Shown here: positions 6,972 to 56,734 of the stretch, piece by piece
How the letters are laid out: every line of letters begins with the position of its first letter
Position numbering within the stretch: position 1 is the first letter of the stretch
Source: a virus
Lineage: Duplodnaviria > Caudoviricetes
Virus record (IMG/VR): IMGVR_UViG_3300031992_000018
Location: 64,001-128,000 of that record
DNA: 64,000 nucleotides
Reading direction: 5' to 3' (one strand)
Notes under the pieces: generated by a model
Told to the model about the DNA's origin: nothing
The model's database searches: none
What the model saw: only the letters and a program-made list of their open reading frames with translations
Translations under genes and position numbers: made by a program

Positions 6972-8003
6972 ATGAAGAAATTTTCAGATATATTTAACGA
7001 ATCTTGTGTAACAAGTGATGTAAATCAAGGTAATTCATTATCACTTGGTGTAAGTAATCATTATACACCTGTTCAGAATATTGTAACTAATGTTAGAAAT
7101 TTATTTTCTATCATAGTTCCTGTTGTTGCATCTGTTGCAGAAGATGGTGTATCAGTTAAATTAAATTCTAGTAAATTTGTAAATAAAGAAGAAATTAATA
7201 AATTACTTTATCAACCAGTATATCAATCACAATCTTTATATTCATTCATTGCTTCACAAGGACTTGATCTTGTTAAGATGGTAAATCTTGGCATGTATTT
7301 TGTTGTATATTTCTGCCCAAGAGATATTAAACAAGCAGCTCCTGGTCTTGAAGCAAATCCAGCTTCAGCTCCAGTAAAAGAACAATTCCAAGAAGAAGTT
7401 GAAATGTTTAACTTTATCAAAGAAAGTGAAGATGATGAAGAATTAAAAGATTTGACTAAAGAAAAACTCAAAGAAATTCTTGATATGAAGGATAAAGTAA
7501 AAGCTGCTAAGCAGATGGAATTACTTATTTCTAGTGAAGTAGAACTTCCAAGAGAATATTATTTTGCTGGTGTTAAAGATAAACAAGGAAATGAATCAAT
7601 TGCACTTAGATGGAAATATACAGTAAAGAGACCAAAGGGAATGAGTGCTGAAATTACAAGAAGCCTTATTAATATTTATGGTGTTGATAAAGATGGTGTA
7701 TGGGTAGGAGATTTTGATGAAGATAGTATGTTCCAACTTCCTGATGAAGTAAAGAAACTTATTGAAACAGTTCTTGATTATATTGGTGCCGAAAAAACAG
7801 ATGATCCATGTGTATATGATTTATCCGGAGAAAATAAAAAAGATAAAGAAGATAAAGAGGATAAAGATGATGAAGAAACAAAGGATAATTCTAACAAAAA
7901 TGATGGAAATAAAGAAAAAGAAAGAGAAGAAAGCAAAAAAGAAAATGATGAAGATGTAGAAGATGATAAATCTCGTGATGAAGCTGATGATTTATTAAAA
8001 TAA
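6972..8003 (+). CDS. putative virion protein with CTS-like leader and charged disordered C-terminus
   Basis: MKKFSDIFNE start; D/E/K-rich tail. Confidence 0.6.
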   Translation: MKKFSDIFNESCVTSDVNQGNSLSLGVSNHYTPVQNIVTNVRNLFSIIVPVVASVAEDGVSVKLNSSKFVNKEEINKLLYQPVYQSQSLYSFIASQGLDLVKMVNLGMYFVVYFCPRDIKQAAPGLEANPASAPVKEQFQEEVEMFNFIKESEDDEELKDLTKEKLKEILDMKDKVKAAKQMELLISSEVELPREYYFAGVKDKQGNESIALRWKYTVKRPKGMSAEITRSLINIYGVDKDGVWVGDFDEDSMFQLPDEVKKLIETVLDYIGAEKTDDPCVYDLSGENKKDKEDKEDKDDEETKDNSNKNDGNKEKEREESKKENDEDVEDDKSRDEADDLLK

Positions 8004-41158: not shown

Positions 41159-42046
41159 TTAATCATGATACCATTTAGGAGGATTTTTTTGTAAAGGAGA
41201 TTCTTTAAACATACGTAGCATATTTGTAACATTACTTACATTCCACTTTGATATATCCCCATTAAATTTAGAATTTAAAAACATACAATACATATTAGTA
41301 ACTTTACTTACATCCCAAGATGATATATCTCCATTAAATTCAGTCTTACTAAACATACTTGCCATACTTGTAACATTACTTACATCCCATTTTGATATAT
41401 CACCATTAAATTTAGAATTATAAAACATACTATTCATACCTGTAACATTGCTTACATTCCAAGATGATATATCACTATTAAAATCAGAATCACAAAACAT
41501 TGCCGACATATCAGTAACATTACTTACATCCCAAGAAGATATATCTCCATTAAATGATGAATAATAAAACATCTGTGACATATCAGTAACATTACTTACA
41601 TCCCAAGAAGATATATTTCCATTAAATAATGAATGATAAAACATAGAAATCATATCTTTAACATTACTTACATCCCAAGATGATATATCACCATTAAATT
41701 CAGAACCAGAAAACATTCTTTGCATATTAGTAACATTACTTACATCCCAAGATGATATATTTCCATTAAATTTAGAATTATAGAACATACTATCCATATT
41801 AGTAACATTACTTACATCCCAAGATGATATATTTCCATTAAATTTAGAATTATAGAACATACTATCCATATTAGTAACATTACTTACATCAATATCATTT
41901 AAATCAGCCTTATTTCCTCTTTCTTCAATAAGTTTATCTACTAAAGATTTAAGTTCATCTCTATCTTTAGGTTGATAATTATGTATTGGTTTAATATTTT
42001 TATTAAGATGAAGTTTTTCAAATAAGTAATTATTTAATTCTTTCAT
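41159..42046 (-). CDS. DUF285 / BspA-like repeat protein with CTS-like leader
   Basis: Ten 24-aa repeats WDVSNVT.M..MF....FNG.IS; leader MKELNNYLFEKLHLNKNI. Confidence 0.85.
   Translation of the reverse strand: MKELNNYLFEKLHLNKNIKPIHNYQPKDRDELKSLVDKLIEERGNKADLNDIDVSNVTNMDSMFYNSKFNGNISSWDVSNVTNMDSMFYNSKFNGNISSWDVSNVTNMQRMFSGSEFNGDISSWDVSNVKDMISMFYHSLFNGNISSWDVSNVTDMSQMFYYSSFNGDISSWDVSNVTDMSAMFCDSDFNSDISSWNVSNVTGMNSMFYNSKFNGDISKWDVSNVTSMASMFSKTEFNGDISSWDVSKVTNMYCMFLNSKFNGDISKWNVSNVTNMLRMFKESPLQKNPPKWYHD
41723..41890. repeat. perfect 72-bp tandem repeat (2.3 copies) within the DUF285 array
   Basis: Unit starting catattagtaacattacttacatc at 41723, 41795 and 41867. Confidence 0.9.
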
Positions 42047-42078
42047 TATATGTATAATATATTATTATATATAAAAAT

Positions 42079-42108
42079 AAAAAAGAGGTTCATTTATTGA
42101 ACCTCTTT
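42079..42108. terminator. terminator, copy 2 of the duplicated hairpin
   Basis: aaaaaagaggttcatttattgaacctcttt, identical to 41125 except for 1 loop nt. Confidence 0.8.
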
Positions 42109-42127
42109 CTATTTATATTTTAGTAAA

Positions 42128-43405
42128 TTATTTTTCAAGCATTGCAAGTTCTTTAGCTGCTTTATTAAGAAGAGTAATCTTAACAGGATCATTCTTATAT
42201 TGTTCTGCTAAAAGAGCAATCTTCTTTCTTCTTGCTGCGAATGCTGCTTCTTTATCAGCTTCAAGTTGTTCCTTGATTTGCTGATATTTTTCGGGATCAG
42301 CTTTCTTACAATCTTCATTGATTCTATTTTCATAAACTTCTTTAAGATCAATACCTGTTACTTTAATAACATCCTTAAGAGCTTCTACCATAAAATCATA
42401 AGATTTAACTGAAGTACCAGCATTAAGTGAACGGTTAACTGAAAGAACTACATTATTACCTTCGATAATTGTGCAAATTTCACCTGTAGATGTCTGAAGA
42501 ACATTAACATTATCAAGAGCGCGTACATTATCATAAGCTTCAAATACTTCTGCAATAGCACTTGTAACATTCATCCAATTCATCTTTTCATTTAATGACA
42601 TTGGTTTAGAAACTGTATTACAATACTGAATAAAATCAGCTGCATTACTAAAGCTTTCTTTAAGATCACCTTTTGTAAATACAAGACCTTCATCAGTTAA
42701 AGTAAATCTTGCTGTATCTCCATGAGTACCTTTATATTCATAGAAAATAGAATTATCTTCTCTAGAGAAACTTTCAAGAAGAGCATTAATTCTCTTGAAT
42801 TTAATATCATCACAAACAGCTTCAGTAATATTATTTTCTTCATCTCTCTTATAAGTTTTACCAAGAACTGAGAAATAAGAATCTTTCTTATCTTCACTTT
42901 CTGTAACTACTACATAAGAAATAGGAGTTGTAACAACATATGTAGGAGCATGCATTTCATTAAGAGTTGAAGCATAAACATTCTTAAGAATCTGTCTAAA
43001 TTCAGGAATAAATGTAAGGTTCTTCATTGCACCAGCTTTAAGATATGATACAACTTCACTTTCATTCATTTCAAGAAGTTTATCTACTTGTTCAAGTCCC
43101 ATCTTTGAAAGATAACCATAACTTGAATTATTAGCATTGATTGATTCACAAGCTGTTGCAAGTTGCCAAGAAATATTATTTTCTTTAATAAAACTATTAA
43201 CAGATTCTAAAATTCCTACCAAACCTGCATCGAAACTAAATTTAGCTGCTTCTTTAATAAAGCCATTAACGATACCACAGGTAACTGGATTAGAATAAAT
43301 ATATCCTCTGTAGTTTTGTAACATTTCTTTACCTGCTTCGGTAACTGCTTCAGTTCCGTTTATCTTACTTGCGAAGTCCAGGTTTTTTAGTAATTTTATA
43401 TTCAT
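42128..43405 (-). CDS. probable abundant structural/prohead core protein
   Basis: 425 aa; many [LIV]xE sites (VTE, ILE, LLE, LNE, INE); coiled-coil C-terminus. Confidence 0.5.
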   Translation of the reverse strand: MNIKLLKNLDFASKINGTEAVTEAGKEMLQNYRGYIYSNPVTCGIVNGFIKEAAKFSFDAGLVGILESVNSFIKENNISWQLATACESINANNSSYGYLSKMGLEQVDKLLEMNESEVVSYLKAGAMKNLTFIPEFRQILKNVYASTLNEMHAPTYVVTTPISYVVVTESEDKKDSYFSVLGKTYKRDEENNITEAVCDDIKFKRINALLESFSREDNSIFYEYKGTHGDTARFTLTDEGLVFTKGDLKESFSNAADFIQYCNTVSKPMSLNEKMNWMNVTSAIAEVFEAYDNVRALDNVNVLQTSTGEICTIIEGNNVVLSVNRSLNAGTSVKSYDFMVEALKDVIKVTGIDLKEVYENRINEDCKKADPEKYQQIKEQLEADKEAAFAARRKKIALLAEQYKNDPVKITLLNKAAKELAMLEK

Positions 43406-43499
43406 AGTTTTAATATATTTGGTATATTTATAGAATTTGTAGATTAATTCTACTTTTTATATATAATAATAAAATAATTTTAAAATGTATGATTATTTA

Positions 43500-43721
43500 T
43501 TATATTTTTGTTTTAATATCTTTAATGTCACCAATTTTAATAACAATTGTATTTTCACTACATTTTGCTATTTCCCAATCATCAATTTGATTCCATTCAT
43601 CAAAATCATCATCATCTGGTCTATGCCAAAAGAATTTACCTCTTAAATCAACTTCTAAAATATATCCTTTACCATTATTATTTATATTTTCATTTAAAAG
43701 GAGTTCAACTAAATTTTTCAT
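43500..43721 (-). CDS. putative head-internal protein with CTS-like leader
   Basis: MKNLVELLLNE. Confidence 0.6.
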   Translation of the reverse strand: MKNLVELLLNENINNNGKGYILEVDLRGKFFWHRPDDDDFDEWNQIDDWEIAKCSENTIVIKIGDIKDIKTKI

Positions 43722-43745
43722 AATTATATTATATATTTATTTATT

Positions 43746-44033
43746 TTATACTTTCCAACCAACTGATGTACCAACAGCAGTAAGTATAAGTCTTGATGTA
43801 AATAAACTTCCAAGAGGACCAGTTTCGTTAATACCAAGAGCCTTACAAATTGCTTTCATAACTTTAGGGCCAAATGTAGCACCAGTAATACCACCAACTA
43901 TAGATCCTATAATTCCTTCTTCAATTGGAATATTATTTTCTTTAGCCTCTTGAAGTTTAGCAATTACATTATCATAAGTTAATTCCTCTGTAATAGGAGT
44001 TTCAGTATTTATAAAATCTTCTAATTTTTTCAT
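43746..44033 (-). CDS. CTS-like leader protein with Gly-zipper hydrophobic C-terminal half
   Basis: MKKLEDFINTE..ITEE...IEEGIIGSIVGGITGATFG. Confidence 0.65.
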   Translation of the reverse strand: MKKLEDFINTETPITEELTYDNVIAKLQEAKENNIPIEEGIIGSIVGGITGATFGPKVMKAICKALGINETGPLGSLFTSRLILTAVGTSVGWKV

Positions 44034-44038
44034 ATTAA

Positions 44039-44467
44039 TTATTTAATGATTTTATCTATATCAAAATCAAATTCATCTTTATTATCAACTAAATTCTTTA
44101 TAATTTCATCTTTTGTTCCTATAAAAACTTGATTATCTTCTTCAGAATTTCCAGCAATAGCATTTAATCCAGGACGATAAAAAATATAACTTGTTTCATC
44201 ATATATATTTTTAAAAATTAAATCACCAACCTTAGGTTTATTATTACCTTTATCAGCAAAATAATTACTATTATCATATATAAAGTATTCTTCAATAAAT
44301 TCTTTCATAGAAGAACCTTCTTTAAAATCATCATTTGTTAATATATGATAAGGTTCAATCTCTTTAATTAATTTATTTAATTTACTTTGTGCATTGATTT
44401 CTTTATAATCAATTATATAATATATATCTTTTTTTGTTTCTAAAATATAATCTTTTAAACTTTTCAT
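44039..44467 (-). CDS. putative head-internal protein with CTS-like leader
   Basis: MKSLKDYILE. Confidence 0.65.
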   Translation of the reverse strand: MKSLKDYILETKKDIYYIIDYKEINAQSKLNKLIKEIEPYHILTNDDFKEGSSMKEFIEEYFIYDNSNYFADKGNNKPKVGDLIFKNIYDETSYIFYRPGLNAIAGNSEEDNQVFIGTKDEIIKNLVDNKDEFDFDIDKIIK

Positions 44468-44487
44468 ATTAATTATTTAATAATTTT

Positions 44488-45258
44488 TTATAGTTTTTTA
44501 CCAAGATTATTTATTGGATGAGGAAATTCATTTTTCTTTGCAAGTTCTTCTAAATCTTTTTCATACTTCTCTTTTTCAAAAACAATTGTAAATAAGAAAG
44601 TATAAAGATCATCAAGATTATCAATAGCAACATCAAGTACTTGAGCCCAAGTAATTTCTTTTCTCTTTTCAAGTTTAGTTAAAGTATCTGCTGCATTAAG
44701 TAAAGAATTTTTTATAGAACATTCTTTACCATTAGTACCCATATGTTTAATAGCAAATAATTGAATATCACCATTAGCTCTTAATAAAAGTACAGGTTCT
44801 GATAATTTTTCATCTTTACATATAGATAATATATCATTTCTTAATTTAGGACTCATACACATATTTCCCATATTAGAACATGGTTCATAAAATACAAGTG
44901 GTTCTGAATTGCTTCTTTGATATTCATCATTGAATCTGCATTTATAACTAAATTCTCCATGTGCATTATATAAATCCATTACTTTAGGATAACCTGAAAA
45001 AATCTGTGTATATTTTGTAACAGGATCTAATGGAGTACATGAACTAGGTTCTAAAGTATTTGCACATGGAACGCAAGGATCAACAGTACATGATGCTTCA
45101 CCAGGAATATCACATCCATAAGAGCAACCATCATCACAACATCCACAACATTCAGTTATTTCATATCCTTCAAGATTAGAAAGTTTTTCTACAATATTCT
45201 TATCTAATCCCTTTAAACATATATATTGATTATTTATATATTCAGATAATTTTTTCAT
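44488..45258 (-). CDS. CTS-like leader protein with Cys-rich segment
   Basis: MKKLSEYINN...ITECCGCCDDGCSYGC... Confidence 0.65.
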   Translation of the reverse strand: MKKLSEYINNQYICLKGLDKNIVEKLSNLEGYEITECCGCCDDGCSYGCDIPGEASCTVDPCVPCANTLEPSSCTPLDPVTKYTQIFSGYPKVMDLYNAHGEFSYKCRFNDEYQRSNSEPLVFYEPCSNMGNMCMSPKLRNDILSICKDEKLSEPVLLLRANGDIQLFAIKHMGTNGKECSIKNSLLNAADTLTKLEKRKEITWAQVLDVAIDNLDDLYTFLFTIVFEKEKYEKDLEELAKKNEFPHPINNLGKKL

Positions 45259-45312
45259 ATCTTAATATTATATAATTTTCTATTAAACTTTAGAAAATGT
45301 AGTAATTCTAAT

Positions 45313-45660
45313 TTATTTTACTAATTCTAATACTTTAGCTATAACCTTTTTAAAGATTTCACCAGCCTTTTCAGGTTCATTTTTAAATAATTGTAAACAA
45401 ACTGCACTATGATAAGCATCATATATTTTATTATTTATTTCTTTATCCCATTTTGGAGATTCAAAATAAACATCTAAAGCATTCATAGCTACATCATGAA
45501 TCTTATTTACATCATCATTATTTTTAACATCTAAATCTTTAACATCATCATATTGAGATGATAATTCATTAACCGATATTGCTTTATTTTCATTTATATT
45601 AAAATCAATATCAATTGTATTTGCACTTGCATTGTTTAAATATTCATTTAAGCTTTTCAT
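45313..45660 (-). CDS. putative head-internal protein with CTS-like leader
   Basis: MKSLNEYLNN...NINE. Confidence 0.65.
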   Translation of the reverse strand: MKSLNEYLNNASANTIDIDFNINENKAISVNELSSQYDDVKDLDVKNNDDVNKIHDVAMNALDVYFESPKWDKEINNKIYDAYHSAVCLQLFKNEPEKAGEIFKKVIAKVLELVK

Positions 45661-45677
45661 ATCTTTATATTATTTAT

Positions 45678-45890
45678 TTAATCAAAATATCCACAAGCAT
45701 CCATTTCATCATAAAGTTCTTCTAAAGTTTTGTCTGTAAATGTATCCCACAAAAGATTTAAAATTTCTTCTGTATCTAATTTAGAAAAAGCTTTATTCAT
45801 TTTTTCTTTATAATTATCTCTTTCTGATTGAGACCATTCATTAATTACTTGTTCATCAGTATGATTTAAATATTCATTTAAGTTTTTCAT
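45678..45890 (-). CDS. putative head-internal protein with CTS-like leader, acidic
   Basis: MKNLNEYLNH...VINE. Confidence 0.65.
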   Translation of the reverse strand: MKNLNEYLNHTDEQVINEWSQSERDNYKEKMNKAFSKLDTEEILNLLWDTFTDKTLEELYDEMDACGYFD

Positions 45891-45936
45891 ATCTTTATAT
45901 TATTTATTTATATAATTTTCCATTGAGTTTCATAAA

Positions 45937-46416
45937 TTAATCCCAAGCGGCATCATCATATTCTTTTGTTCTTCTTATATTTTTATAACCATTATCAGTA
46001 TATGAAAGTTTAGTATAAAGATTATTTATTAATTCATAAATAAATCCATAAGGTTTTCCAGGATCTTTTCTTTCAGAACATTGATACTGCCAACTGTCTA
46101 GCCATTTTAATATTTGTACCTCTGAAACTTTTTCTTTAGGTTCAGAATATTTAAATGTAGATTTTGCTGCTTCTGATTTTCCATATCTATAACTTATTGC
46201 ACGACGATTACAATTATATAAATCATTTGCAATTGTTTGTTCATCTGCATCATCATACCATTTTATGTATGTTTTAGTAATTTTTGAAAGTAAATCAGAT
46301 TTATTTATAAATAAGTCATGAATATATTTTGCTAATTGATTAATTACTTCATCACTTTCCATAAATGCAGATTCATTAATGAGTGATTCATTTAAATATT
46401 CATTTAAGTTTTTCAT
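45937..46416 (-). CDS. putative head-internal protein with CTS-like leader
   Basis: MKNLNEYLNESLINE; mature part has LY..N..A...RY and YQCSE motifs. Confidence 0.7.
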   Translation of the reverse strand: MKNLNEYLNESLINESAFMESDEVINQLAKYIHDLFINKSDLLSKITKTYIKWYDDADEQTIANDLYNCNRRAISYRYGKSEAAKSTFKYSEPKEKVSEVQILKWLDSWQYQCSERKDPGKPYGFIYELINNLYTKLSYTDNGYKNIRRTKEYDDAAWD

Positions 46417-46424
46417 ATCTTATA

Positions 46425-46826
46425 TTATATAATTTTCCATTGAGTTTCAGAAACTGTAGTGATTCTCATATTATCAAGACCTTGTTTAAGATAAAGGTCA
46501 AGAATCTTTTGAAGTTCTGTATTGTTATTAGCATAAAAAGGAACAGGATATTTAAGAGTCTTTATTGTTCCATCTTCCTGTTCTACTTCTTCTGCAAATT
46601 TTACTATAAATACTTTGCATGTTTCTTGATATTCTATATTACCAGCTGGTTTAAGATTCTTCATAAGACATACATCTTCAATCTCTCCTTCACCATTTAA
46701 ATATTTTAATACAGCATATCCTGCTTCTGCAAAATTATTTTGATCACTAAGATAATACTCAGTGATAGGTTTTTCTTTACCTTTAGTGGTTAATATATTT
46801 CTACTTACCTTAACTCTGTACCACAT
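46425..46826 (-). CDS. DUF4494-like protein (Bacteroidota family)
   Basis: MWY.VKV......GKEK.ITE.YL....F.EA...; ends VSET..II. Confidence 0.7.
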   Translation of the reverse strand: MWYRVKVSRNILTTKGKEKPITEYYLSDQNNFAEAGYAVLKYLNGEGEIEDVCLMKNLKPAGNIEYQETCKVFIVKFAEEVEQEDGTIKTLKYPVPFYANNNTELQKILDLYLKQGLDNMRITTVSETQWKII

Positions 46827-46838
46827 AATTATTATATA

Positions 46839-47273
46839 TTATATACTTTCTAAATCTATCCATCCGTATTTGCTACTATCTAATTTATCCTGAATTTTTT
46901 CAATAAAATCAATAAAAGAATAAATTACATAATCTCTTGATGGATCAAATTCATCATCATCACCTTTATAATATTTAATATCATCTAAATCTGGATAAAG
47001 ATTATTTATATATTTTTTAAAAATTTCTATTTCCATTTTTAATTCATCTTCTCTTTCTTTAGATTTATAGTTAGTTTCAAAATCTTCTCTTCTTTGAATA
47101 CTTAAAAACTCTCCAATAGATTTATCATCATTATTTATTATAAAAAATTGTTCACCACTAACACCATTATCGTCATAATGATACTGGAAAACTAATAATT
47201 TAATATCATCTATTTTTATATTTTTATTAAGATGAAGTTTTTCTGAAATTAAATATTCATTTAAAGTTTTCAT
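46839..47273 (-). CDS. putative head-internal protein, EKLHLNK leader subfamily
   Basis: MKTLNEYLISEKLHLNKNIK. Confidence 0.7.
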   Translation of the reverse strand: MKTLNEYLISEKLHLNKNIKIDDIKLLVFQYHYDDNGVSGEQFFIINNDDKSIGEFLSIQRREDFETNYKSKEREDELKMEIEIFKKYINNLYPDLDDIKYYKGDDDEFDPSRDYVIYSFIDFIEKIQDKLDSSKYGWIDLESI

Positions 47274-47280
47274 ATATTAT

Positions 47281-47613
47281 TTATTTATTTATTTCATTAT
47301 ATCTTTCAATTATATCTAATAGTAATTGTTTATTAGATATTGGATAAAACATTCTATCAATATAGATTCCAATAATATCTTTTGGTGCTGCAATATCTAA
47401 TTCTTTATCAATCATATTTATTGTATACCATGAATAATCATTTCCTTCTTTTAAAAGAATTTTAGGTAATTGATCAGAATTACTTTTATTTGCATCATAT
47501 CTATTTGTTCTATCGATTACTTTTTTACATGCTTCATCTTTTTCTAAAATAGATTTTACAAATGCAAAAAAAGAATTTTTTCCTTCAGTTATATATTCAT
47601 TTAAATTCTTCAT
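47281..47613 (-). CDS. putative head-internal protein with CTS-like leader
   Basis: MKNLNEYITE. Confidence 0.7.
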   Translation of the reverse strand: MKNLNEYITEGKNSFFAFVKSILEKDEACKKVIDRTNRYDANKSNSDQLPKILLKEGNDYSWYTINMIDKELDIAAPKDIIGIYIDRMFYPISNKQLLLDIIERYNEINK

Positions 47614-47704
47614 TATATTATATAATCTAATTAAATAAAAATAAAATCTTTTGAATTATATTATCAAAATTATCTATAATACATTATCTAAATTAATTAA
47701 TAAA

Positions 47705-47902
47705 ATGAAAAAAATATTTGTTTTAATTATATCATTACTTTGTTTATTTGGTTGTTCTTCACAAGAAAGAGGTTCTAATGGAATTTCTGTTGAAAAGTTT
47801 ACTTATGAACAACATGACTATTTGATGTTTTACACAATAACTGGTCATTTTACTGGAGTAGAACATGATCCAAATTGTTGGTGTATGAATGATTATGATT
47901 AA
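47705..47902 (+). CDS. small lipoprotein
   Basis: MKKIFVLIISLLCLFG-C signal peptide II / lipobox. Confidence 0.7.
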   Translation: MKKIFVLIISLLCLFGCSSQERGSNGISVEKFTYEQHDYLMFYTITGHFTGVEHDPNCWCMNDYD

Positions 47903-48080
47903 ATTTTATATAATATGAGTAAATATCCTAAAATGACACATTATCCATTACCAACTTCTATTAATGGAGAAATTTTTGAACCAGAAAAATATGAGAAATG
48001 TATTCAAGTAGAAGTCAATAAAGATGGTTCAATAGATACTTATGATTTTAATACATGTAAACATTTAGAAAGATATTAAT

Positions 48081-48725
48081 ATGGAAATTACACTTGTTAC
48101 AACATTTGATTTAAGTCAAGATATTACTCTTGATGCTTATAATGAAGATGAAAAAGTAGGTACTGCTGTTATAAAAAATAGTGAACTTACTTATTATAAT
48201 CTTTTGACTCATACTGATGAAAAGTTTACTGAAGATAATCTTAATGAATTTATAGATTTTGTTTCTGAATTTAATCTTAAATTTAAAAAGGTATGGGATA
48301 GAAAATGGATAAAATATAATCCAAATCCTCAGAATAATAACACTGGTGACTGTTCAATTAGAGCTTATTGTAAAGCTGAAAATCTTGAATGGAATACAGC
48401 ATATGATATGGCCACTAAAGTAGGTAAAGAAATGTCAATGATTTGTGATGACCATAAAGTAGTTGATAAGATACTTACTGAAAAATTTGGTTATACTTAT
48501 TACAAAGGAGATCATTGTTTTGTAAAAGATACTGATGGTAAAGGTAAACTTGAGAAAGGAAAAAAGAAAACAATTAATGAGTTTGCTATTGAACATCCTA
48601 AAGGAAAATATATTCTATGGGTTCATGCTCATGTAGTTACAGTAATTGATGGATATTATTATGACTCTTGGGATAGTGGAAATAAAAAGATAAATGGTTA
48701 TTATACAAAAGAAAAAGAGAGGTAA
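48081..48725 (+). CDS. papain-like (Cys-His-Asp) peptidase-fold hypothetical protein
   Basis: NPNP....GDCSIRA, HVVTVIDG.YYDSWDS. Confidence 0.5.
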   Translation: MEITLVTTFDLSQDITLDAYNEDEKVGTAVIKNSELTYYNLLTHTDEKFTEDNLNEFIDFVSEFNLKFKKVWDRKWIKYNPNPQNNNTGDCSIRAYCKAENLEWNTAYDMATKVGKEMSMICDDHKVVDKILTEKFGYTYYKGDHCFVKDTDGKGKLEKGKKKTINEFAIEHPKGKYILWVHAHVVTVIDGYYYDSWDSGNKKINGYYTKEKER

Positions 48726-48740
48726 AAACCTCTCTTTTTT
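48712..48740. terminator. bidirectional terminator
   Basis: aaaaagagaggt-aaaa-acctctctttttt. Confidence 0.8.
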
Positions 48741-49152
48741 ATTTTAGTAATTTATTAAATTCTGATTTAGAAACTTTAGTAAAATTATCAAAATTTTGTG
48801 CCCAATCATAACAAACCTTTTCATAATTATCACCTGTTAAATCTCCACCTTCTAAAGAAAATGTAAAAGATTTAACATTATCAATAAATACATCCATATC
48901 TTCCCATGAACCTTCACCAAATCCAACTTCGCCATCATATTTATCTAAATATGTATGTAATTTACCAACAATTTCTTGTCCTTTTAATTTACCAAAATTA
49001 AAAATAATTACAGCATCACGCATTGTAACATAATAACATGTATCAGGCCAGTCATAAGTATCTGTATTTTTTAACCATTTATTTATAAATTCAAATACTT
49101 CTTTTTCAGATAATGTTTTTGCTTCTAATAAAAATTCTACTAGATTTTTCAT
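48739..49152 (-). CDS. putative head-internal protein with CTS-like leader
   Basis: MKNLVEFLLE. Confidence 0.7.
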   Translation of the reverse strand: MKNLVEFLLEAKTLSEKEVFEFINKWLKNTDTYDWPDTCYYVTMRDAVIIFNFGKLKGQEIVGKLHTYLDKYDGEVGFGEGSWEDMDVFIDNVKSFTFSLEGGDLTGDNYEKVCYDWAQNFDNFTKVSKSEFNKLLK

Positions 49153-49173
49153 AATTTATATATATATTTAATA

Positions 49174-49560
49174 TTAATCCAAGTGATCAAAAGCTACTGG
49201 TTCACCATTCCAATAATAACAATATGTATATTTATCTAATTTTACATCTCCAAATTTATTTATTCTTGCTCTCTTTTCTTCTGTTTCTTTTGTATCAAAT
49301 TCATCAGGAATTGGAACTGATTTACCAGCTTGACCATTACCAGATACAATTTTATCTTTTAATTTTCTAAAAGTAAATGTTTTACCACTAATTTTAACTA
49401 TTTTATAAAAATCAATTATAATCATACTATAACTAAAATTAGAATAAATAATATCACCTACTTCCCAATTTTCTGGTTTTGATTTATCTCTTTCTTCAAC
49501 AGTTTCAATATCTTTATTAAGATGTAATTTTTCTATTATATATTTATCTAATTGTTTCAT
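49174..49560 (-). CDS. putative head-internal protein, EKLHLNK leader subfamily
   Basis: ATG at 49560: MKQLDKYIIEKLHLNKDIE; mature part VGDI.Y...Y....IDFYK.VK. Confidence 0.7.
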   Translation of the reverse strand: MKQLDKYIIEKLHLNKDIETVEERDKSKPENWEVGDIIYSNFSYSMIIIDFYKIVKISGKTFTFRKLKDKIVSGNGQAGKSVPIPDEFDTKETEEKRARINKFGDVKLDKYTYCYYWNGEPVAFDHLD

Positions 49561-49570
49561 ATTATATATA

Positions 49571-51079
49571 TTAATATTTATGTCCTCCTCTTGCATATTG
49601 AAGTCTCATTTGTTCTTCAATCATTGATTCTGCATCTTCATCAGTAAAATCAGGATCATCATCACAAGCAGTAAATATCTTTGCACAAAGAACAAATGTT
49701 CTTAATGATAATTCCATACTTGATCCTTTTTCATTTAATTCTTTTAAATAATTATAAGCCTTTATTTTTGCTTTAGGCAATAATATTTTATTTTCAATAT
49801 TTGGAAGTAATTTCTTTATAATTGATAAAATCTCATCATTTGAAAAATCAATATCTTGCATAAAACATCTATTTCTTAAAGCTGTATCAAGTTGTCCTGC
49901 ACGATAATTTGTTATAACAATAACACCAGATTTAATTCTACATTTCTTTGGAATTTCTTGACCGTCATCATCAGTAATTTTACCAGCAATTCCATAAGTA
50001 ACAAGTCTTCCTTCTGGAGATGTATCTGAATCAAGAGCTGCTTTAAGAATATTGATACAGTTTTCATCTGCTTGTGGACCTACAAGAGAGTCAGCATCAT
50101 CAATTAAAATAATATCATTACTTTCTCTAAATCCATAAAGAGTAGCATAAAGTCTTCTTGCTGTACATTTGCCTTTTATAGTACAAAGATTTTCTCCTTC
50201 AATATAATTAGATTCTTTAAGTTGTTTCTTTACTCTATATGTTTTACCAACACCAGGAGCTCCACAAAGAATAAGTGCTGGTTGACGACCTTTAATAACT
50301 AAAGAAATATATTTTTCCATTTCTTTAAATATCTGGTCAGGATCTTTTCTATTACTTTGAGCATCTTTAATTTCCTTAGAATCTTCAATTTCAACTCTTT
50401 TACCTTTAGCAATTGATACTTTAATATCTTCTGAACCACCTTCTTTTATATATTTATAAATATCTTTAACATCATTTTCGATATTATTTAAATTAGAGTT
50501 TGAAATTTTACTCTTAGCAATAAATGATTCATGAATTAAATCTTTATCAATTTTAGAAAAAATATAATTTAATTTACCAATATTATATTTAGATTCTTTT
50601 AAATTATCTTCTTTATTAGATAATTTTTTAACATCTTCTTCACTAATAGAATATTTTTTAGAATTTACTATTGTCCATACTACTGGTAATAATTTAGCTA
50701 TATTTGTACCTAAAGTATAAATAGATAAATCTGCTTTTCCTTTACCAGACCAATATACATCTAAATCTTTAAAAAAGTCTATAGAATATACATCTACAGA
50801 ATCATTATCATTAATCCAATTAAATTGAAAAAATGAAGTTTTAGCATAATCTGATTTATCAATAACAATAAATTGTTTTGATGTACATTTTTCACCATCA
50901 ATTGTAGTATCTACAAAACCAATAAGAGGAACAAGACCATTGATATGCTTCTTTAAAATTGATTCAATTTTTTCAATAGCCGCATCAATATCTTTTTCTC
51001 TAAATGATTCATTTAATTTTTCTTTATTTTGTATATCTTGATTACGCTTATTTACGAATTCTAAAAAATTATATCTCAT
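49571..51079 (-). CDS. AAA+ ATPase with N-terminal extension
   Basis: Walker A GAPGVGKT, Walker B ILIDDAD, ITN, ALRNR arginine finger; leader MRYNFLEFVN...LNES. Confidence 0.85.
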   Translation of the reverse strand: MRYNFLEFVNKRNQDIQNKEKLNESFREKDIDAAIEKIESILKKHINGLVPLIGFVDTTIDGEKCTSKQFIVIDKSDYAKTSFFQFNWINDNDSVDVYSIDFFKDLDVYWSGKGKADLSIYTLGTNIAKLLPVVWTIVNSKKYSISEEDVKKLSNKEDNLKESKYNIGKLNYIFSKIDKDLIHESFIAKSKISNSNLNNIENDVKDIYKYIKEGGSEDIKVSIAKGKRVEIEDSKEIKDAQSNRKDPDQIFKEMEKYISLVIKGRQPALILCGAPGVGKTYRVKKQLKESNYIEGENLCTIKGKCTARRLYATLYGFRESNDIILIDDADSLVGPQADENCINILKAALDSDTSPEGRLVTYGIAGKITDDDGQEIPKKCRIKSGVIVITNYRAGQLDTALRNRCFMQDIDFSNDEILSIIKKLLPNIENKILLPKAKIKAYNYLKELNEKGSSMELSLRTFVLCAKIFTACDDDPDFTDEDAESMIEEQMRLQYARGGHKY

Positions 51080-51115
51080 AAATTATAATATTAATTATAT
51101 ATAAAAATAAAATTA

Positions 51116-52810
51116 TTAAATCCATATAATTGTTATAGGATCTATCTTTATAAATGAATTTTTATTTGGTTTATCTGTATAATAGTTAAATCCTCCTCCA
51201 AGTATTGGAATTTCTAATTTTGAATTTAATGATATATTTCCATAATTGTCAAGTCCTGGATTTGTATCACTTTCATAATATATCTTTTTATTTACTAAGT
51301 TATATTGACCATTTATATATTCAAAATTAGAAGTATAATAAAATCCTCTATAAAATGTTTCTTCACTAAGTTCTGATATTATATCTATATCAAATGATTC
51401 AATATCATCATGACAAAGAGAACCAATATTAATTAAATCACTCTTAGCAATAAATTTTGAATCCTCTTTCAAATTCATAAAATAATTACCTAATACAGAT
51501 TTTATAGAATCTTCAATATCTTGTTTAGAATATTGTGATTTTGTTTTAACATAACACATAATAGCAAATCTTCTAATTTCAGGATCTTGGAATTTAAGTG
51601 TTATACCAGCAAATGATTTATTTGAATTCTTAAGAGTATTTTGAATCATTAATTTTTGGTCATTTGTAATTAAAATACCTTGATTATTATTTGCTTTATT
51701 AGTTAATTTATAGTATTCATCTATAGAAGATATATTATTTATTATATTAGATATACATGTAGCATATATAGTCATACTATTTTCTTCACTCCAACAATTT
51801 ACATATCCAACAAATGAGAATCTTTTAAAGAATAATTTAAAGTTTTGTTCAGAAGCAATGACATTACTTCTAGAATTATATCCAATCATATTTCTTACAA
51901 AATCAATTGAATCAGAATTTGTACCACCAGAAATTACTGTATTAAGATTAAGTAATAAATAGTCATCTAAGTTAACTGTATTTCCTTCTGAATCATATCC
52001 ATTATCAACAAATGAAAATTTAGGATTATCACCATATAAAATATTTCCTATAGTTCCTGAATGTGATAAATATAATATTTGTACTACATCACCAGGATTT
52101 GGAATTTTACCATATATACCATTACCAAATATTATATCAAATGTATTTTCATATCCAACAGTAAGAACATATTCTTTACTGTCTTTTGACATATCATATA
52201 AACTTGAAACAGGTTCCCATTCTTCTCCATTTACAAATACTCTTATATAATCTCTGTCAAAAAGACCAGATGATTCAATAGATATTCTTTCAAGAGGTTC
52301 ACCAATACAACCATATTGATAATTATTCCATGTTCCTTGTACAATTTTAAATTCATGAGATGTAAGTGGTTGCTTTGTATAAATTATATATCTATTTGAA
52401 TTCAATATAACAACATAGTTTACACCAGTATTCTTATTGATTATTCTTGTATAATTATTAATATAAATTTTATCAATATCAAGATATGAACCATTATTCA
52501 TTATAACTTTACCAATAATACTTCCACTTGCAGCTGATCCATAATATGGTTCATAACCACTGATTTTAGCTAATGAATAAATACTTTTTCTTCTTGTAGC
52601 AGTTCTGACATTTTGTTCTGTAAGAGCATCTTCAATATAGAACATAGCATTTTGCATGATACCTTTAATACCATCAAAGATAACACCAAAAATTTGGTTA
52701 TGAGTATATTGATAACCAATTGAATTAAATGTTTTTGAAAGATATAGTCTTACTGTTTCATCAAACTGATCATAAGCAGTTTGCATTACTGAAAATAATT
52801 TATTAGCCAT
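51116..52810 (-). CDS. baseplate wedge protein, T4 gp6-like
   Basis: TA.RRKSIYSLAKISGYEP, VQG, IRVFVNGEEW, IIFGNGIYGKIP..G..V...YL...G..GN, GG...DSI. Confidence 0.85.
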   Translation of the reverse strand: MANKLFSVMQTAYDQFDETVRLYLSKTFNSIGYQYTHNQIFGVIFDGIKGIMQNAMFYIEDALTEQNVRTATRRKSIYSLAKISGYEPYYGSAASGSIIGKVIMNNGSYLDIDKIYINNYTRIINKNTGVNYVVILNSNRYIIYTKQPLTSHEFKIVQGTWNNYQYGCIGEPLERISIESSGLFDRDYIRVFVNGEEWEPVSSLYDMSKDSKEYVLTVGYENTFDIIFGNGIYGKIPNPGDVVQILYLSHSGTIGNILYGDNPKFSFVDNGYDSEGNTVNLDDYLLLNLNTVISGGTNSDSIDFVRNMIGYNSRSNVIASEQNFKLFFKRFSFVGYVNCWSEENSMTIYATCISNIINNISSIDEYYKLTNKANNNQGILITNDQKLMIQNTLKNSNKSFAGITLKFQDPEIRRFAIMCYVKTKSQYSKQDIEDSIKSVLGNYFMNLKEDSKFIAKSDLINIGSLCHDDIESFDIDIISELSEETFYRGFYYTSNFEYINGQYNLVNKKIYYESDTNPGLDNYGNISLNSKLEIPILGGGFNYYTDKPNKNSFIKIDPITIIWI

Positions 52811-52816
52811 ATTATA

Positions 52817-53170
52817 TTATTGATATTGATATTCTCTTATTTTTGTTTCTCCAGATTCTTTATCTACTAAAGCAATCTTTATTAAATAAATACTTCTATA
52901 ATCACCTTGAAGAAATGTAGCATTTACATAATATTCCATCTTAGATGCATAATATGTAAGTGTATCTATTTTTTCTCTTATATATTTTTCAATTTCAGAT
53001 GTAGTTGGAGTAAGTGTCCATAAAAATGATTCAAATTCTGTACCATATTGTGGATATCCAATTAATTGTGTATTTTCTGTATTAAGAAGCATATCTATTT
53101 CTTGAAGTGCACAATCTACTTCATTATCTAAAAATACTCTTCCATCTAAAGCTAAATCTAACATAATCAA
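52817..53170 (-). CDS. baseplate protein, T4 gp25-like
   Basis: QEIDMLLNT......G.P.YG......LW; adjacent to the gp6-like gene. Confidence 0.7.
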   Translation of the reverse strand: MIMLDLALDGRVFLDNEVDCALQEIDMLLNTENTQLIGYPQYGTEFESFLWTLTPTTSEIEKYIREKIDTLTYYASKMEYYVNATFLQGDYRSIYLIKIALVDKESGETKIREYQYQ

Positions 53171-53172
53171 AA

Positions 53173-54996
53173 TTAATTTATATTATAATTTCCATCAGAA
53201 ATATAATCATTGTTTTCATTTACAATGGTATATTTTCCATATAAATTGTTTATATCTGATGAATTTATTGAAAAAATTACATATATATCATTTCTTCCTA
53301 TTTCAATATATTCTTGTTGTTCAATAATCAATTTAAATGTTTCTACTTTTGATAAATATTCACTTAAATCAATACCAATATTCTGAGTAAATCCATTTCT
53401 TAAACTGATATTTTGTAATTCAGATGTTTTATAAAATATTGGTTTATATATTACTCTTGGAGTACTTGATTTTTTAATACTTATATTATTATCATTTTCT
53501 GATGATTTTAAAATTGAACAATTTATTTTATCAATAAATACAAGATTATCTTTATTTATTTCTGTTACTAACATATTTGTTTTATTGTTTAATTTATATA
53601 TCTTATTAAATGTTAATTTATGTATAGATAAATCATTTATTAAATATTTATACCATTCTTTAGATAATATAACTGGATTAGAACGTATAATATTACAATT
53701 TACTTTATCGATAAATGATATTCTATATACAATTAATTCAGGAATATCATCCCAAGTATCAAAAATATCTGCTAATGGTAACATCATATTATCAATTATA
53801 GAATCATTTAAATTGCTACATGATTTATAAAATACTTCATTAAAATATTTATCTGTACTAAATTCTATTAAAAATCCTGTTTTATTTATATTTTCTAAAT
53901 CTTCACCAAATAAATCATTATCTTCTTCTTTATTATTTTCATAATTTATATATTCATTTTTAGTAATATTATTGAAAAATAAATATGATTCTTCTAAAGT
54001 TTTATTATCATAATCTGGATATGAAAATTCATTTACAATAAAAGGAATTCCATAATATTTATTATATAATGTTTGTGATTCAAACTCTTCTTCTTTTAAA
54101 AATTTTATTTTACTTTTTAAAGAGAATGAAACATTTATATTAAATGTATTAGAGTTTTGTAAATTATCAAGATCTTGAACATACATATTATTACTATCAA
54201 CATCAATATATGGTGTTAATATAATATTCAATGTATTATAAAATTGATTATTGATATAATTTATTTTATTATCAAAAATCTTCTTATAAGATACACTACC
54301 ATTTTCTTTAATATCAGATTCAATACTATATGGATAATATAATAAATAAAATGGTACTAAAGAAGTATATTCATTATCATTATTCTTTAAATTAAATTTT
54401 TCTTGAGTATTTCTATTTATACATTCATTATAATCTTCTATATAAATATCTTTATCATATAAAAGTAATTTTAAACAAGGTATATATAATTCTATATATT
54501 CTGAATATGTTATATTATTTATTACTAATTCAGTATTAGATAATCTTGGATAATTTTTACTTAAATCAACTAAATAATGAAATTTTATATCATTTATATA
54601 ATTTTCAATATCTATTATACTATTTAATGTTGTATAAATAGTTGGTATATATATTCTTATTTTATCACACAATATTTCTGTCTCATTAAAACTTGAATTA
54701 TATATCTTATACTTATTATATTCTATATTATCTCTTTTTATCTTATCATTAAAATTTGATGGATCTGTTGAATATCCAAGAGATGTTCCATTTGGAATAG
54801 GGAAACAAGAAATATTTTTATTTGACTCAGGAATAAAAAATATATCTTTATCTACAAAGATACCAGATATAAAGTTTTGATTTTTTAATATGTAAAACTT
54901 TTCATAATGATGCAAATCATTTTTTAAATCAGTCATCGCATCAAAATAATCAATAATATAAGTATAATTACCTAATATTACTTTTTCTCTTATCAT
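53173..54996 (-). CDS. hypothetical (probable baseplate-region structural) protein
   Basis: 607 aa, co-oriented with gp25/gp6, late motif 32 nt upstream. Confidence 0.55.
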   Translation of the reverse strand: MIREKVILGNYTYIIDYFDAMTDLKNDLHHYEKFYILKNQNFISGIFVDKDIFFIPESNKNISCFPIPNGTSLGYSTDPSNFNDKIKRDNIEYNKYKIYNSSFNETEILCDKIRIYIPTIYTTLNSIIDIENYINDIKFHYLVDLSKNYPRLSNTELVINNITYSEYIELYIPCLKLLLYDKDIYIEDYNECINRNTQEKFNLKNNDNEYTSLVPFYLLYYPYSIESDIKENGSVSYKKIFDNKINYINNQFYNTLNIILTPYIDVDSNNMYVQDLDNLQNSNTFNINVSFSLKSKIKFLKEEEFESQTLYNKYYGIPFIVNEFSYPDYDNKTLEESYLFFNNITKNEYINYENNKEEDNDLFGEDLENINKTGFLIEFSTDKYFNEVFYKSCSNLNDSIIDNMMLPLADIFDTWDDIPELIVYRISFIDKVNCNIIRSNPVILSKEWYKYLINDLSIHKLTFNKIYKLNNKTNMLVTEINKDNLVFIDKINCSILKSSENDNNISIKKSSTPRVIYKPIFYKTSELQNISLRNGFTQNIGIDLSEYLSKVETFKLIIEQQEYIEIGRNDIYVIFSINSSDINNLYGKYTIVNENNDYISDGNYNIN

Positions 54997-55093
54997 AAAT
55001 TTTACATACTTAATTTAATTAAAAATAAAAATCTACTATAAAAGTTTAAAGATTTGAATGTTATTTTTATATATAAATAGATAATACTAAGAA

Positions 55094-55936
55094 ATGAAAA
55101 CATTTTCAAATTACATTGATAATATAAAATTAATTGATGAAATTTGTTCTTATGAATATAGTGATGTAGTTCTTGAAGGAATATTAAAGAAAATAGCTAA
55201 TTGGTTTGGTAATAAATCAAGAAATATATCTAATAAATTAAATAATTTTTATGATGAATTATATTATTTTCCAGATAATGTAATAAAGACATTTAATGGA
55301 ACATTATCAATTGCAGCAGATGAAACTAATGATTCACAAGAAAATAAAGATATTATAAATAACATTATTAATGATAAACCAGAAAATATACCAGAAAAAG
55401 TTATAAATTATCTTAAAGAACATGAAAATGATAAAGATTTTTATAATTCAATACTTATTGCTTCATTATGTGTATTAGGTATAAATGTAGCAAATGAAAA
55501 TAAAGATCAAAAATCAGTAGATACTATAAAATTATATTTTAATAAAATTAGTGATAAAATAAAGGAAGATACTAAAGATATTTTAAAAAAATCTACAAAT
55601 AATCCAGATAATAATGATAATGATAATGATAATAATCCTTCAGAAGATCTTACTAAAAAAGTTGATGATGTAGTACAAAATGTAGTAGATGATAATCCAG
55701 ATATAGATATTAATAAAGAAAAAGAAAGAGAATTAATAGAAACAATAACTTGGATGATTTTTTATAAATATAATAAAAATAATATGAATTCAGACGAAAT
55801 TGAAGATAATGCCAAGAGACTTGCTAATATATTAATAAATGAATTAGAATTAGATGATGATTTAAAACAGAAATTTAATATAACTTCATTAGATGATTTA
55901 AAACAGAAAATTGAAGATTATAAAAACAATAAATAA
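55094..55936 (+). CDS. CTS-like leader protein
   Basis: MKTFSNYIDN...LIDE...VLEGILKKIANWFG; late motif at 55061. Confidence 0.6.
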   Translation: MKTFSNYIDNIKLIDEICSYEYSDVVLEGILKKIANWFGNKSRNISNKLNNFYDELYYFPDNVIKTFNGTLSIAADETNDSQENKDIINNIINDKPENIPEKVINYLKEHENDKDFYNSILIASLCVLGINVANENKDQKSVDTIKLYFNKISDKIKEDTKDILKKSTNNPDNNDNDNDNNPSEDLTKKVDDVVQNVVDDNPDIDINKEKERELIETITWMIFYKYNKNNMNSDEIEDNAKRLANILINELELDDDLKQKFNITSLDDLKQKIEDYKNNK

Positions 55937-55964
55937 AAAGTTGCAATTTTTGCAACTTTTTTTT
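55935..55964 (+). terminator. intrinsic terminator
   Basis: aaaaagttgcaa-ttt-ttgcaactttttt. Confidence 0.8.
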
Positions 55965-56000
55965 GAATTTCTAGAAATACTTACTATATTATTAATGTAA
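55963..56000 (+). promoter_or_regulatory. class I promoter-like motif upstream of an ORF-free region
   Basis: TTGAAT(55963)-N16-TATATT(55985) followed by TGTA. Confidence 0.7.
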
Positions 56001-56390
56001 TTAATTTAGCTCTTTGAATGCCATTAAAAATACCTAAAAACCAATATTGAAATCGAGGTTATCTTGAAATAAGTTTAGCAGATTTCACATTTTTTGGAGG
56101 ATAAACCAATGTAATAGATAAAATATATAATTAATTTTATTCTAATTTATTTAATCTTAAGAGTAAAAACTAACAAAGAGAGTTAAAGTTTTTCAAAACC
56201 TTTTTCAACGCTCTCGCAACAATAATTAAGGCGTAAGGTGTTTAAAAAACGAACAATACAGACTAGTCATCTGATATTGAAGCCTGAGTGACTTGGAAAG
56301 AAAAGATAATATAATATTTAATACGAATTATTTAATTTAATTATGAATATAAAAATGAGCACCTTTGAGTATCAGGTGCTCTTATTTTTT
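55997..56390 (+). ncRNA. candidate large structured non-coding RNA
   Basis: No credible ATG-initiated ORF found by hand; several stems, two potential pseudoknots, 5'/3' pairing; ends in terminator gagcacct...aggtgctc (56357-56381). Confidence 0.55.
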
Positions 56391-56392
56391 AA

Positions 56393-56734
56393 TTATTTAT
56401 TTTTAAATTCTATGTCATGTATATATATTGTTGTAAGATCATCTTCATCAAAGGTTATAAAAAAACTATCTATATAATCATTATCAAAAAATTTCTTTTT
56501 TATCTCTTTAATACAACTATGTAAAAAAGATGATGATTTTTCTTTTTTAAATTTTATATATAACCATTTATCATCATCTATAATAAATGTATAATCATCA
56601 TCTTTATATAAAAATTCTCCATCAAAATAAGATTCTAGATCAAATAATAGTTTATCCATATTATCTGATTTTACATTTATATTTTTATTAAGATGTAATT
56701 TTTCTGTTATATATTGACTTAAATTATTCATCAT
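56393..56734 (-). CDS. putative head-internal protein, EKLHLNK leader subfamily
   Basis: MMNNLSQYITEKLHLNKNIN. Confidence 0.7.
   Translation of the reverse strand: MMNNLSQYITEKLHLNKNINVKSDNMDKLLFDLESYFDGEFLYKDDDYTFIIDDDKWLYIKFKKEKSSSFLHSCIKEIKKKFFDNDYIDSFFITFDEDDLTTIYIHDIEFKNK

Follow-up and report, generated by a model that had tools for sequence, protein, structure and literature searches.

A candidate two-part leader with a fixed peptide after its predicted cleavage site, carried by unrelated small proteins of uncultured T4-type giant phages

The capsid-targeting sequence (CTS) of bacteriophage T4 is the textbook route for loading unrelated proteins into a phage head and also serves as a delivery tool; in phiKZ, 201phi2-1 and SPN3US, inner-body and ejection proteins undergo multi-site propeptide processing at S/A/G-x-E. 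Here we compare with these systems a leader found at the start of four unrelated minus-strand genes in a 64,000-nucleotide stretch of viral DNA (the window; bases 64001-128000 of the 168,026-bp IMG/VR phage contig IMGVR_UViG_3300031992_000018, 25% G+C). The T4 CTS consists of the first ten residues of the internal proteins, which are enough for packaging, and gp21 cleaves after Glu in L/I-X-E (PMC9026906; bioRxiv 10.1101/2021.01.19.427310; PMC3012670). By mutagenesis, residues 4 and 7 act in targeting, and residues 8 and 10 in processing (PMC9026906; bioRxiv 10.1101/2021.01.19.427310); a change at residue 10 blocks processing and leaves targeting intact (PMC9026906). The T-even internal-protein (IP) loci are described, in the passages of PMC2839356 that cite Repoila 1994 and Comeau 2007, as hypervariable, with more than 30 IP variants and PeSL-like promoter/stem-loop elements.

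Our preferred reading, to which we give a probability of roughly 0.55, is that the leader has two parts: a T4-like targeting propeptide and a portable cut-site junction that leaves a common N-terminal stub, the junction being reused in polyproteins. Residues 1-10 would dock the protein into the prohead scaffold core, and a gp21-type (S77) prohead protease would remove them by cutting after Glu in [L/I]-x-E. Residues 11-17 (K-L-H-L-N-K-D/N) would be the prime side of the cut, forming one unit with the scissile [ILV]-x-E and belonging to neither the targeting part nor the cargo fold. The same cut unit, placed between the folding units of two- and three-unit cargo, would give each released unit the same stub at its start. 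We infer packaging, cleavage between E and K, and any post-cleavage function for the stub from sequence comparison.

The extended leader and its cargo

The four window genes, each followed by its E-K-L-H-L-N-K codons, are as follows.

41159..42046, minus strand: gene 1, 295 amino acids; extended leader and DUF285 (BspA-like) repeat cargo (PF03382, 398 bits)
41999..42019, minus strand: codons 10-16 of gene 1; cut predicted after Glu
46839..47273, minus strand: gene 2, 144 amino acids; ORFan cargo behind an extended leader that has one extra residue (Y-L-I-S-E)
47223..47243, minus strand: motif codons of gene 2; DNA pattern match
49174..49560, minus strand: gene 3, 128 amino acids; ORFan cargo, all orthologues retaining the leader
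49513..49533, minus strand: motif codons of gene 3; DNA pattern match
56393..56734, minus strand: gene 4, 113 amino acids from 56734 or 112 from 56731; ORFan cargo
56684..56704, minus strand: motif codons of gene 4; DNA pattern match

All four begin M-x-x-L-x-x-Y-[IL]-x-E-K-L-H-L-N-K-[ND]-I, over 17-19 residues, and differ afterwards. The DNA pattern proposed in a sequence-only reading of the window matches exactly 4 times (0.01 expected from shuffles), and every match encodes E-K-L-H-L-N-K near the start of a minus-strand open reading frame (ORF), at codons 10-16 or, in the 47273 gene and in gene 4 read from 56734, at codons 11-17. Pairwise DNA identity among the four is 85-96% across the 27 nucleotides for E-K-L-H-L-N-K-x-I and 31-47% in the following 45 nucleotides, and BLASTP found no similarity among the four bodies. 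The sequence-only reading was thus right that the genes share a start and then diverge, and right, as a statement about sequence, that the conserved part extends past the predicted cleavage Glu. It had reported four such genes, and a motif search over the 168-kb contig raised the number to ten, three of them DUF285 paralogues, including gene 1.

Related contigs were picked by the exact DNA pattern at gene starts (several IMG/VR contigs), and two, G001 (169.6 kb) and G002 (74.7 kb), were compared with the window contig. They carry 19 and 18 extended-leader genes, respectively, and the bodies of the 47 proteins from the three contigs form 35 BLAST clusters. A profile of 36 positions, built from the N-termini of these 47 proteins and searched against 1.84 billion representatives, gave, at E ≤ 1e-3, matches to at least 545 clusters (identity no higher than 50%), which in nearly every case start at residue 1. 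Across 141 representative N-termini, M1, Y7, I8, E10, K11 and L12 are invariant (100%), K16 and L14 reach 99% and 98%, H13 and N15 each occur in 86%, and either D or N fills position 17. Position 4 is L or I in 138 of the 141, while Y7, I/L at P3 and E at P1 (the third and first residues before the cut) occur in all 141 and in all four window genes. The stub, from residue 11 on, is better conserved in this set than the targeting half.

Pfam and PHROGs assigned DUF285 to 9 of 149 representatives and almost nothing besides. Word-index homology searches with the 56734 and 49560 genes returned close orthologues only and no leader-only relatives; deposited phage genomes, searched by tblastn with the 24-residue leader, yielded nothing at E ≤ 10, a search whose power is low with so short a query, and none of the papers in the literature library searched mentions the motif. 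We take the leader genes to be a very large class of small proteins in uncultured T4-type giant phages.

That the four window genes are divergent paralogues, with the shared start as the first element of one common fold, seems to us very improbable. Homology could be hidden, the proteins being small, fast-evolving and mostly ORFans; the idea is nonetheless contradicted by the unrelated bodies, by the 35 clusters among 47 proteins, by a DUF285 cargo whose homologues are mostly leader-free, and by internal copies of the motif that lie between units, the leader being modelled in the three-unit protein P0004 (below) as a detached helix plus coil.

The shared peptide could have travelled as DNA, and codon use bears on this. 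Leu is CTT in 55-60% of motif positions versus 41% genome-wide, CTT and TTA vary within the motif, both Glu and both Lys codons occur, and in the motif variant of the 410-kb relative G003 Arg is AGA, AGG or CGT; motif codon use is near that of the genome. Only Ile8, at P3 of the expected cut, shows a strong codon bias within the motif: ATA encodes it 39 times out of 44, versus 36% genome-wide (47 genes, G000-G002). Because synonymous codons vary freely and follow genome usage, selection acts on the peptide and not on the DNA, and the DNA similarity is accounted for by that selection together with the codon bias of an AT-rich genome. The DNA upstream of the leader genes holds no common promoter or cassette, except among the three DUF285 paralogues. 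A discrete mobile DNA cassette of the PeSL-like kind was rejected, since the flanks are unrelated, identity is limited to the coding motif and codons follow genome usage.

Grafting of the leader, on the other hand, we consider real. Among the 120 best homologues of the DUF285 cargo, 113 are without any leader; signal-like starts occur in 37 of the 113, and the name surface protein is given to several. Some DUF285 homologues have a short, 10-residue leader joined to the same conserved N-domain, and others have variant stubs, e.g. E-K-L-V-I-N-K. Since DUF285 cargo occurs with no, a short or an extended leader, the leader would not be part of the cargo fold. The sequence-only reading had postulated a mobile leader module of about 60 bp and had asked after cargo homologues that lack it: these exist, and the graft stands, but the discrete DNA module does not, the upstream DNA being unshared and the codons free. 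Orthologues of gene 4 (56734) have bodies 85-94% identical and fixed E-K-L-H-L-N-K, with different leader residues 2-9 (common variants), and exchange at the leader does seem to occur. A Sec or lipoprotein signal peptide was rejected as well: the leader is amphipathic and charged, and where it stands, cellular DUF285 proteins begin with signal-like sequences.

The start of gene 3 is most likely 49560 rather than an ATG at 49596, as judged by the leader consensus. The upstream ATG is in frame (window 49561-49596, minus strand) and gives a 140-amino-acid reading that overlaps the end of an AAA ATPase gene (49571-51079); gene callers took it (P0180). AlphaFold gave the 49560 gene a mean predicted local distance difference test score (pLDDT) of only 38.7, from an alignment of four sequences.

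A G+C-rich hairpin and T-run, followed by T-T-T-T-T-A-T-A-T-A-T-A-A-T-A-A, precedes all three DUF285 leader genes and looks like a terminator-plus-promoter unit common only to these paralogues. The hairpins lie as follows.

Window 42047-42115, minus strand: hairpin upstream of DUF285 leader gene
L023:7350-7426, plus strand: hairpin upstream of DUF285 leader gene
L028:17662-17730, minus strand: hairpin upstream of DUF285 leader gene

DUF285 genes end in W-Y-H-E-stop, with the stop codon inside the M-N-N/S start of the next gene (overlap ATGAATAA; L023:7940-7955, plus strand, and L028:16985-17000, minus strand). The M-N-N-L-S leader variant, also found on the 56734 gene, may derive from that overlap context.

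Probable targeting half, predicted cut site and internal junctions

With L/I at position 4, Y at 7, I at 8 and E at 10, the leader agrees with the T4 CTS at all four functional positions, and residues 1-10 (M, K/N/I, x, L/I, x, x, Y, I, x, E) are a probable capsid-loading label by this analogy. In G001 and G002, an S77 protease domain is fused to a scaffold, and a Gp23-type capsid gene follows. A third fusion lies in G003 (97% complete, portal 70% identical to that of the window contig). Protease and scaffold are joined through an acidic low-complexity linker.

G001, L042:4558-6303, minus strand: protease-scaffold fusion
G002, 26051-27802, minus strand: protease-scaffold fusion
G003, 82910-84607, plus strand: protease-scaffold fusion

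The scaffold has 7-8 tandem 12-residue repeats (W-[VI]-x-E-E-F-x-P-E-x-Q-x), each with [IV]-x-E, that are the same across lineages of different stub, and the capsid protein of G001 and G002 has I-H-E↓S (arrow, presumed cut) at the site where T4 gp23 is cut. Directly upstream of the protease-scaffold-capsid module lie 4 (G001) or 8 (G002) extended-leader genes with the same two flanking genes; only two homologous pairs connect these arrays.

The internal copies of the motif separate the two halves of the leader. Among the profile matches, 16 representatives are two- or three-unit proteins in which the motif recurs internally, as [ILV]-x-E-K-L-H-L-[ND]-K, exactly between separately folding units. 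At the 16 internal sites P3 is always I, V or L (background 0.23, P about 8e-11), P1 is always E, and K-L-[HKR]-[LI]-x-K-[DN] follows the Glu; Y at P4 and all upstream residues are not conserved. With P3 and P1 kept and Y7 and everything upstream lost, the internal copies retain the T4 requirements for cutting, together with the stub, and drop those for targeting. K-L-H-L-N-K would then go with the cut site and not with capsid targeting, because it stays with [ILV]-x-E where the targeting residues are gone. The stub may serve to adjust cleavage or make it certain where the linker is exposed, or a factor may recognise it once the cut is made.

In the AlphaFold model of the three-unit protein P0004, three folded blocks are separated by stretches with pLDDT below 50 exactly at residues 1-20, 154-171 and 289-303, that is, at the leader and at each of the two junctions; a helix spans residues 2-12 of the leader, and the stub is modelled as coil. 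Foldseek of this model against the PDB found nothing under E = 1e-3, and P0004 itself was not found in the viral contigs searched. Independent assemblies repeatedly yield such multi-unit proteins, whose clusters have up to 10 members. NCBI MBQ3414810.1, from a 121-kb contig, is an example, and one multi-unit protein is encoded by an unbroken 378-codon ORF within a tandem array of twelve extended-leader genes (L128). The units come in several combinations. P0004 consists of u1+u2+u3, P0006 of u1+u2 and P0007 of u1'+u2+u3'; the gene at 7947 of the window contig encodes u1 on its own and stops at the point where the first junction would start, and P0123, P0107 and P0133 are related to internal units but stand alone. 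The order also varies, with one unit first in P0140 and second in P0022 (from a metagenome collection). Units with the motif at their borders are thus shuffled from protein to protein, and occur both fused and alone. An intein, 2A-like skipping and a self-cleaving linker were rejected, as the motif is without their signature residues (general knowledge) and has the [ILV]-x-E of the protease.

Beside the twelve-gene array, at L128:3-1640 (plus strand), lies a gene for a 545-amino-acid protein with a lipoprotein-like start and a beta-rich body, which may be a host-surface-type protein carried by the phage.

The leader might instead be unrelated to the capsid and act as a translation start context or as a degradation or assembly tag in the infected cell, or gene conversion between paralogues might keep their starts alike. 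Close orthologues have different leader residues 2-9, as though these had been swapped between genes, and the ATA bias at I8 would also fit. We hold this improbable: the leader matches an experimentally defined CTS at four positions, its arrays adjoin protease-scaffold-capsid genes, the internal junctions follow the protease rule, and the free synonymous variation of Leu and of the G003 Arg codons speaks against homogenisation at the DNA level.

Genome setting, short leaders and lineage-specific stubs

The window contig carries a T4-type portal (PF07230, 249 bits) and a large terminase that is also T4-type; its baseplate protein is closest to those of Sphingomonas phage PAU, Tenacibaculum jumbo phages and Lak megaphages. 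Its completeness is estimated at about 59%. Since relatives with portals 67-73% identical reach 410 and 435 kb, we consider the contig to be under half of a megaphage genome, and the completeness estimate for it and for G001 is probably too high. Both contigs are about 168-170 kb long and rated about 60% complete, and they have zero core genes in common; comparison of whole contigs found no core gene common to the window contig and G001 or G002. The three look like non-overlapping parts of related large genomes, and the assemblies may break at repeated leader or DUF285 genes near contig ends. The prohead protease family PF03420 (Peptidase_S77) is present in G003 and in G005, and contigs with portals 70-72% identical to that of the window contig carry it.

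A further 20-35 or so genes of the contig have only a 10-residue leader, M-K-x-L-x-E-Y-I-x-E. The residue after E is mostly S, A, N or G in these short leaders, with K at P1' in a few, and is always K in the extended class. Nine of the short-leader genes are mixed with genes 2 and 3 in one array.

43500..49152, minus strand: nine short-leader genes (M-K-x-L-x-E-Y-[IL]-x-E, then S/A/G/N/T)

A 147-amino-acid short-leader protein is encoded directly downstream of the T4-type portal gene (L023:17855-18295, minus strand), which corresponds to where T4 has its prohead core genes 67 and 68.

These short leaders bear on whether the extended leader is cut at all. Lys-Leu at P1'-P2' could stop or delay cleavage, so that the leader would be a lasting anchor to the core or portal and the internal copies docking sites. 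Uncut targeted proteins are conceivable, as the T4 residue 10 change blocks processing and not targeting (PMC9026906), and P1' is S, A, G or N in most short leaders and in the capsid protein, against an invariant K in the extended class. We nevertheless find an anchor unlikely. A few short leaders also have K at P1'; the internal copies retain the T4 cutting residues (P3 I/V/L, P1 E), lose the targeting ones and lie, in the model, in low-confidence linkers between folded units; and the scaffold repeats stay constant when the stub changes. Docking of a basic stub on acidic scaffold repeats is likewise unsupported, the repeats being unchanged in G003 despite its different stub.

The stub is a lineage trait. 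Its core is E-K-[hydrophobic]-x-[hydrophobic]-x-K, and each genome uses one version throughout, which varies from genome to genome: near portals of 67-88% identity it reads K-L-R-I-N-K, K-L-K-L-N-K or K-L-V-V-S-K. G003 has no exact copy of the motif and has 49 genes with E-K-F-R-[LI]-S-K-D-N, 45 of them in one DUF285-like family and 4 singletons. Directly upstream of its protease gene lie about 19 short-leader genes, where G001 and G002 have extended-leader genes. Three G003 genes have a short leader ending in I-S-E↓A, a ten-residue spacer, and then Y-I-T-E and the stub, an arrangement that would put two cut sites in series before DUF285 cargo.

139908 (L135), minus strand: G003 double-leader gene, DUF285 cargo
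251741 (L141), minus strand: G003 double-leader gene, DUF285 cargo
293712 (L143), minus strand: G003 double-leader gene, DUF285 cargo

Several observations weigh against a two-part leader in which the stub belongs to the cut site. Neither the capsid protein (I-H-E↓S) nor the scaffold repeats ([IV]-x-E↓E) nor the short leaders, all presumed substrates of the same protease, have a stub, so the protease would not need one. The G003 protease domain is about 80% identical to that of G001, an estimate made by eye, and the two phages share the same scaffold repeats, yet the G003 stub is K-F-R-L-S-K-D; the stub does not co-vary with protease or scaffold. Protease, scaffold and capsid genes were not found on the incomplete 168-kb window contig, and since this contig also has no core genes in common with G001 and G002, we can connect it to the protease-scaffold-capsid module by lineage only. 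No depletion of [ILV]-x-E was seen in cargo bodies (observed/expected 1.12, versus 1.13 in controls), a result that favours neither side.

The stub could instead be chiefly a signal that acts after cleavage, the new N-terminus K-L-H-L-N-K-D being read by a phage or host factor that, for example, orders or permits exit through portal and tail, holds the protein on DNA or sets its lifetime in the host by an N-end-rule route. We regard this as a tentative alternative, in line with the ejection or localisation signal suggested in the sequence-only reading; it is compatible with the cut-site reading and departs from it only in what selection acts on. The protease evidently cuts stub-free sites, and the stub still outconserves the targeting half and persists at internal junctions; its uniformity within genomes and difference between them is a pattern that fits one cognate reader. 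On the other side, short-leader cargo of the same size and charge range has no stub, and DUF285 cargo exists with either leader type. The stronger form of this idea, that the exposed heptapeptide is a universal address by which one reader sets the exit order, location or lifetime of dozens of effectors in the host, is possible but doubtful; if true, the motif would be a ready-made rule for cleavable multi-effector proteins.

Comparison with known systems

Under our preferred reading, of a targeting propeptide plus a portable cut-site junction, a giant phage lineage of gut and rumen appears to run T4-like loading at far larger scale and with a fixed junction peptide. If this is true, the leader would be a sequence rule for cataloguing the proteins that uncultured megaphages inject: hundreds of ORFan families, candidates for host-takeover or anti-defence factors. 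The multi-unit proteins would be natural polyprotein cargo built from shuffled units, and the stub a defined peptide for prime-side recognition by a gp21-type protease or for another reader.

As in the T4 CTS, the leader runs for about 10 residues from M-K to [I/L]-x-E, positions 4 and 7 being hydrophobic or aromatic; the small proteins that carry it are unrelated, and it occurs in phages with T4-type portal, protease and capsid genes (protease and capsid in relatives). Unlike in T4, where no residue after Glu is conserved and only a handful of such proteins exist, seven to nine near-invariant residues follow the Glu here, dozens of proteins per genome and at least 545 clusters carry the leader, and the cut unit is also internal. 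The T-even IP loci, as portrayed in those passages of PMC2839356, similarly have tandem arrays of fast-changing cargo that share only the leader, and here too array content differs between close relatives, with 4 versus 8 genes between the same flanks in G001 and G002; in contrast to those loci as portrayed there, the genes here are not flanked by a conserved promoter/stem-loop cassette, lie so close that stop codons overlap the next starts, and have their exchange points at the peptide junction.

In phiKZ, 201phi2-1 and SPN3US, many head proteins are cleaved after Glu by a protease related to gp21, some of them more than once, and the products remain in the head and are ejected. Sites of the phiKZ type have almost no determinants beyond P3 and P1, and there are no shuffled units with a fixed heptapeptide such as those described here. 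Among DUF285/BspA surface proteins (PF03382), the 42046 cargo is a standard repeat array (398 bits), as in the cellular family; cellular homologues have signal-like or other N-termini, whereas the phage copies have a short or an extended leader instead. Set beside these systems, what we consider new is the conserved part after Glu, which recurs as a joint inside multi-unit proteins.

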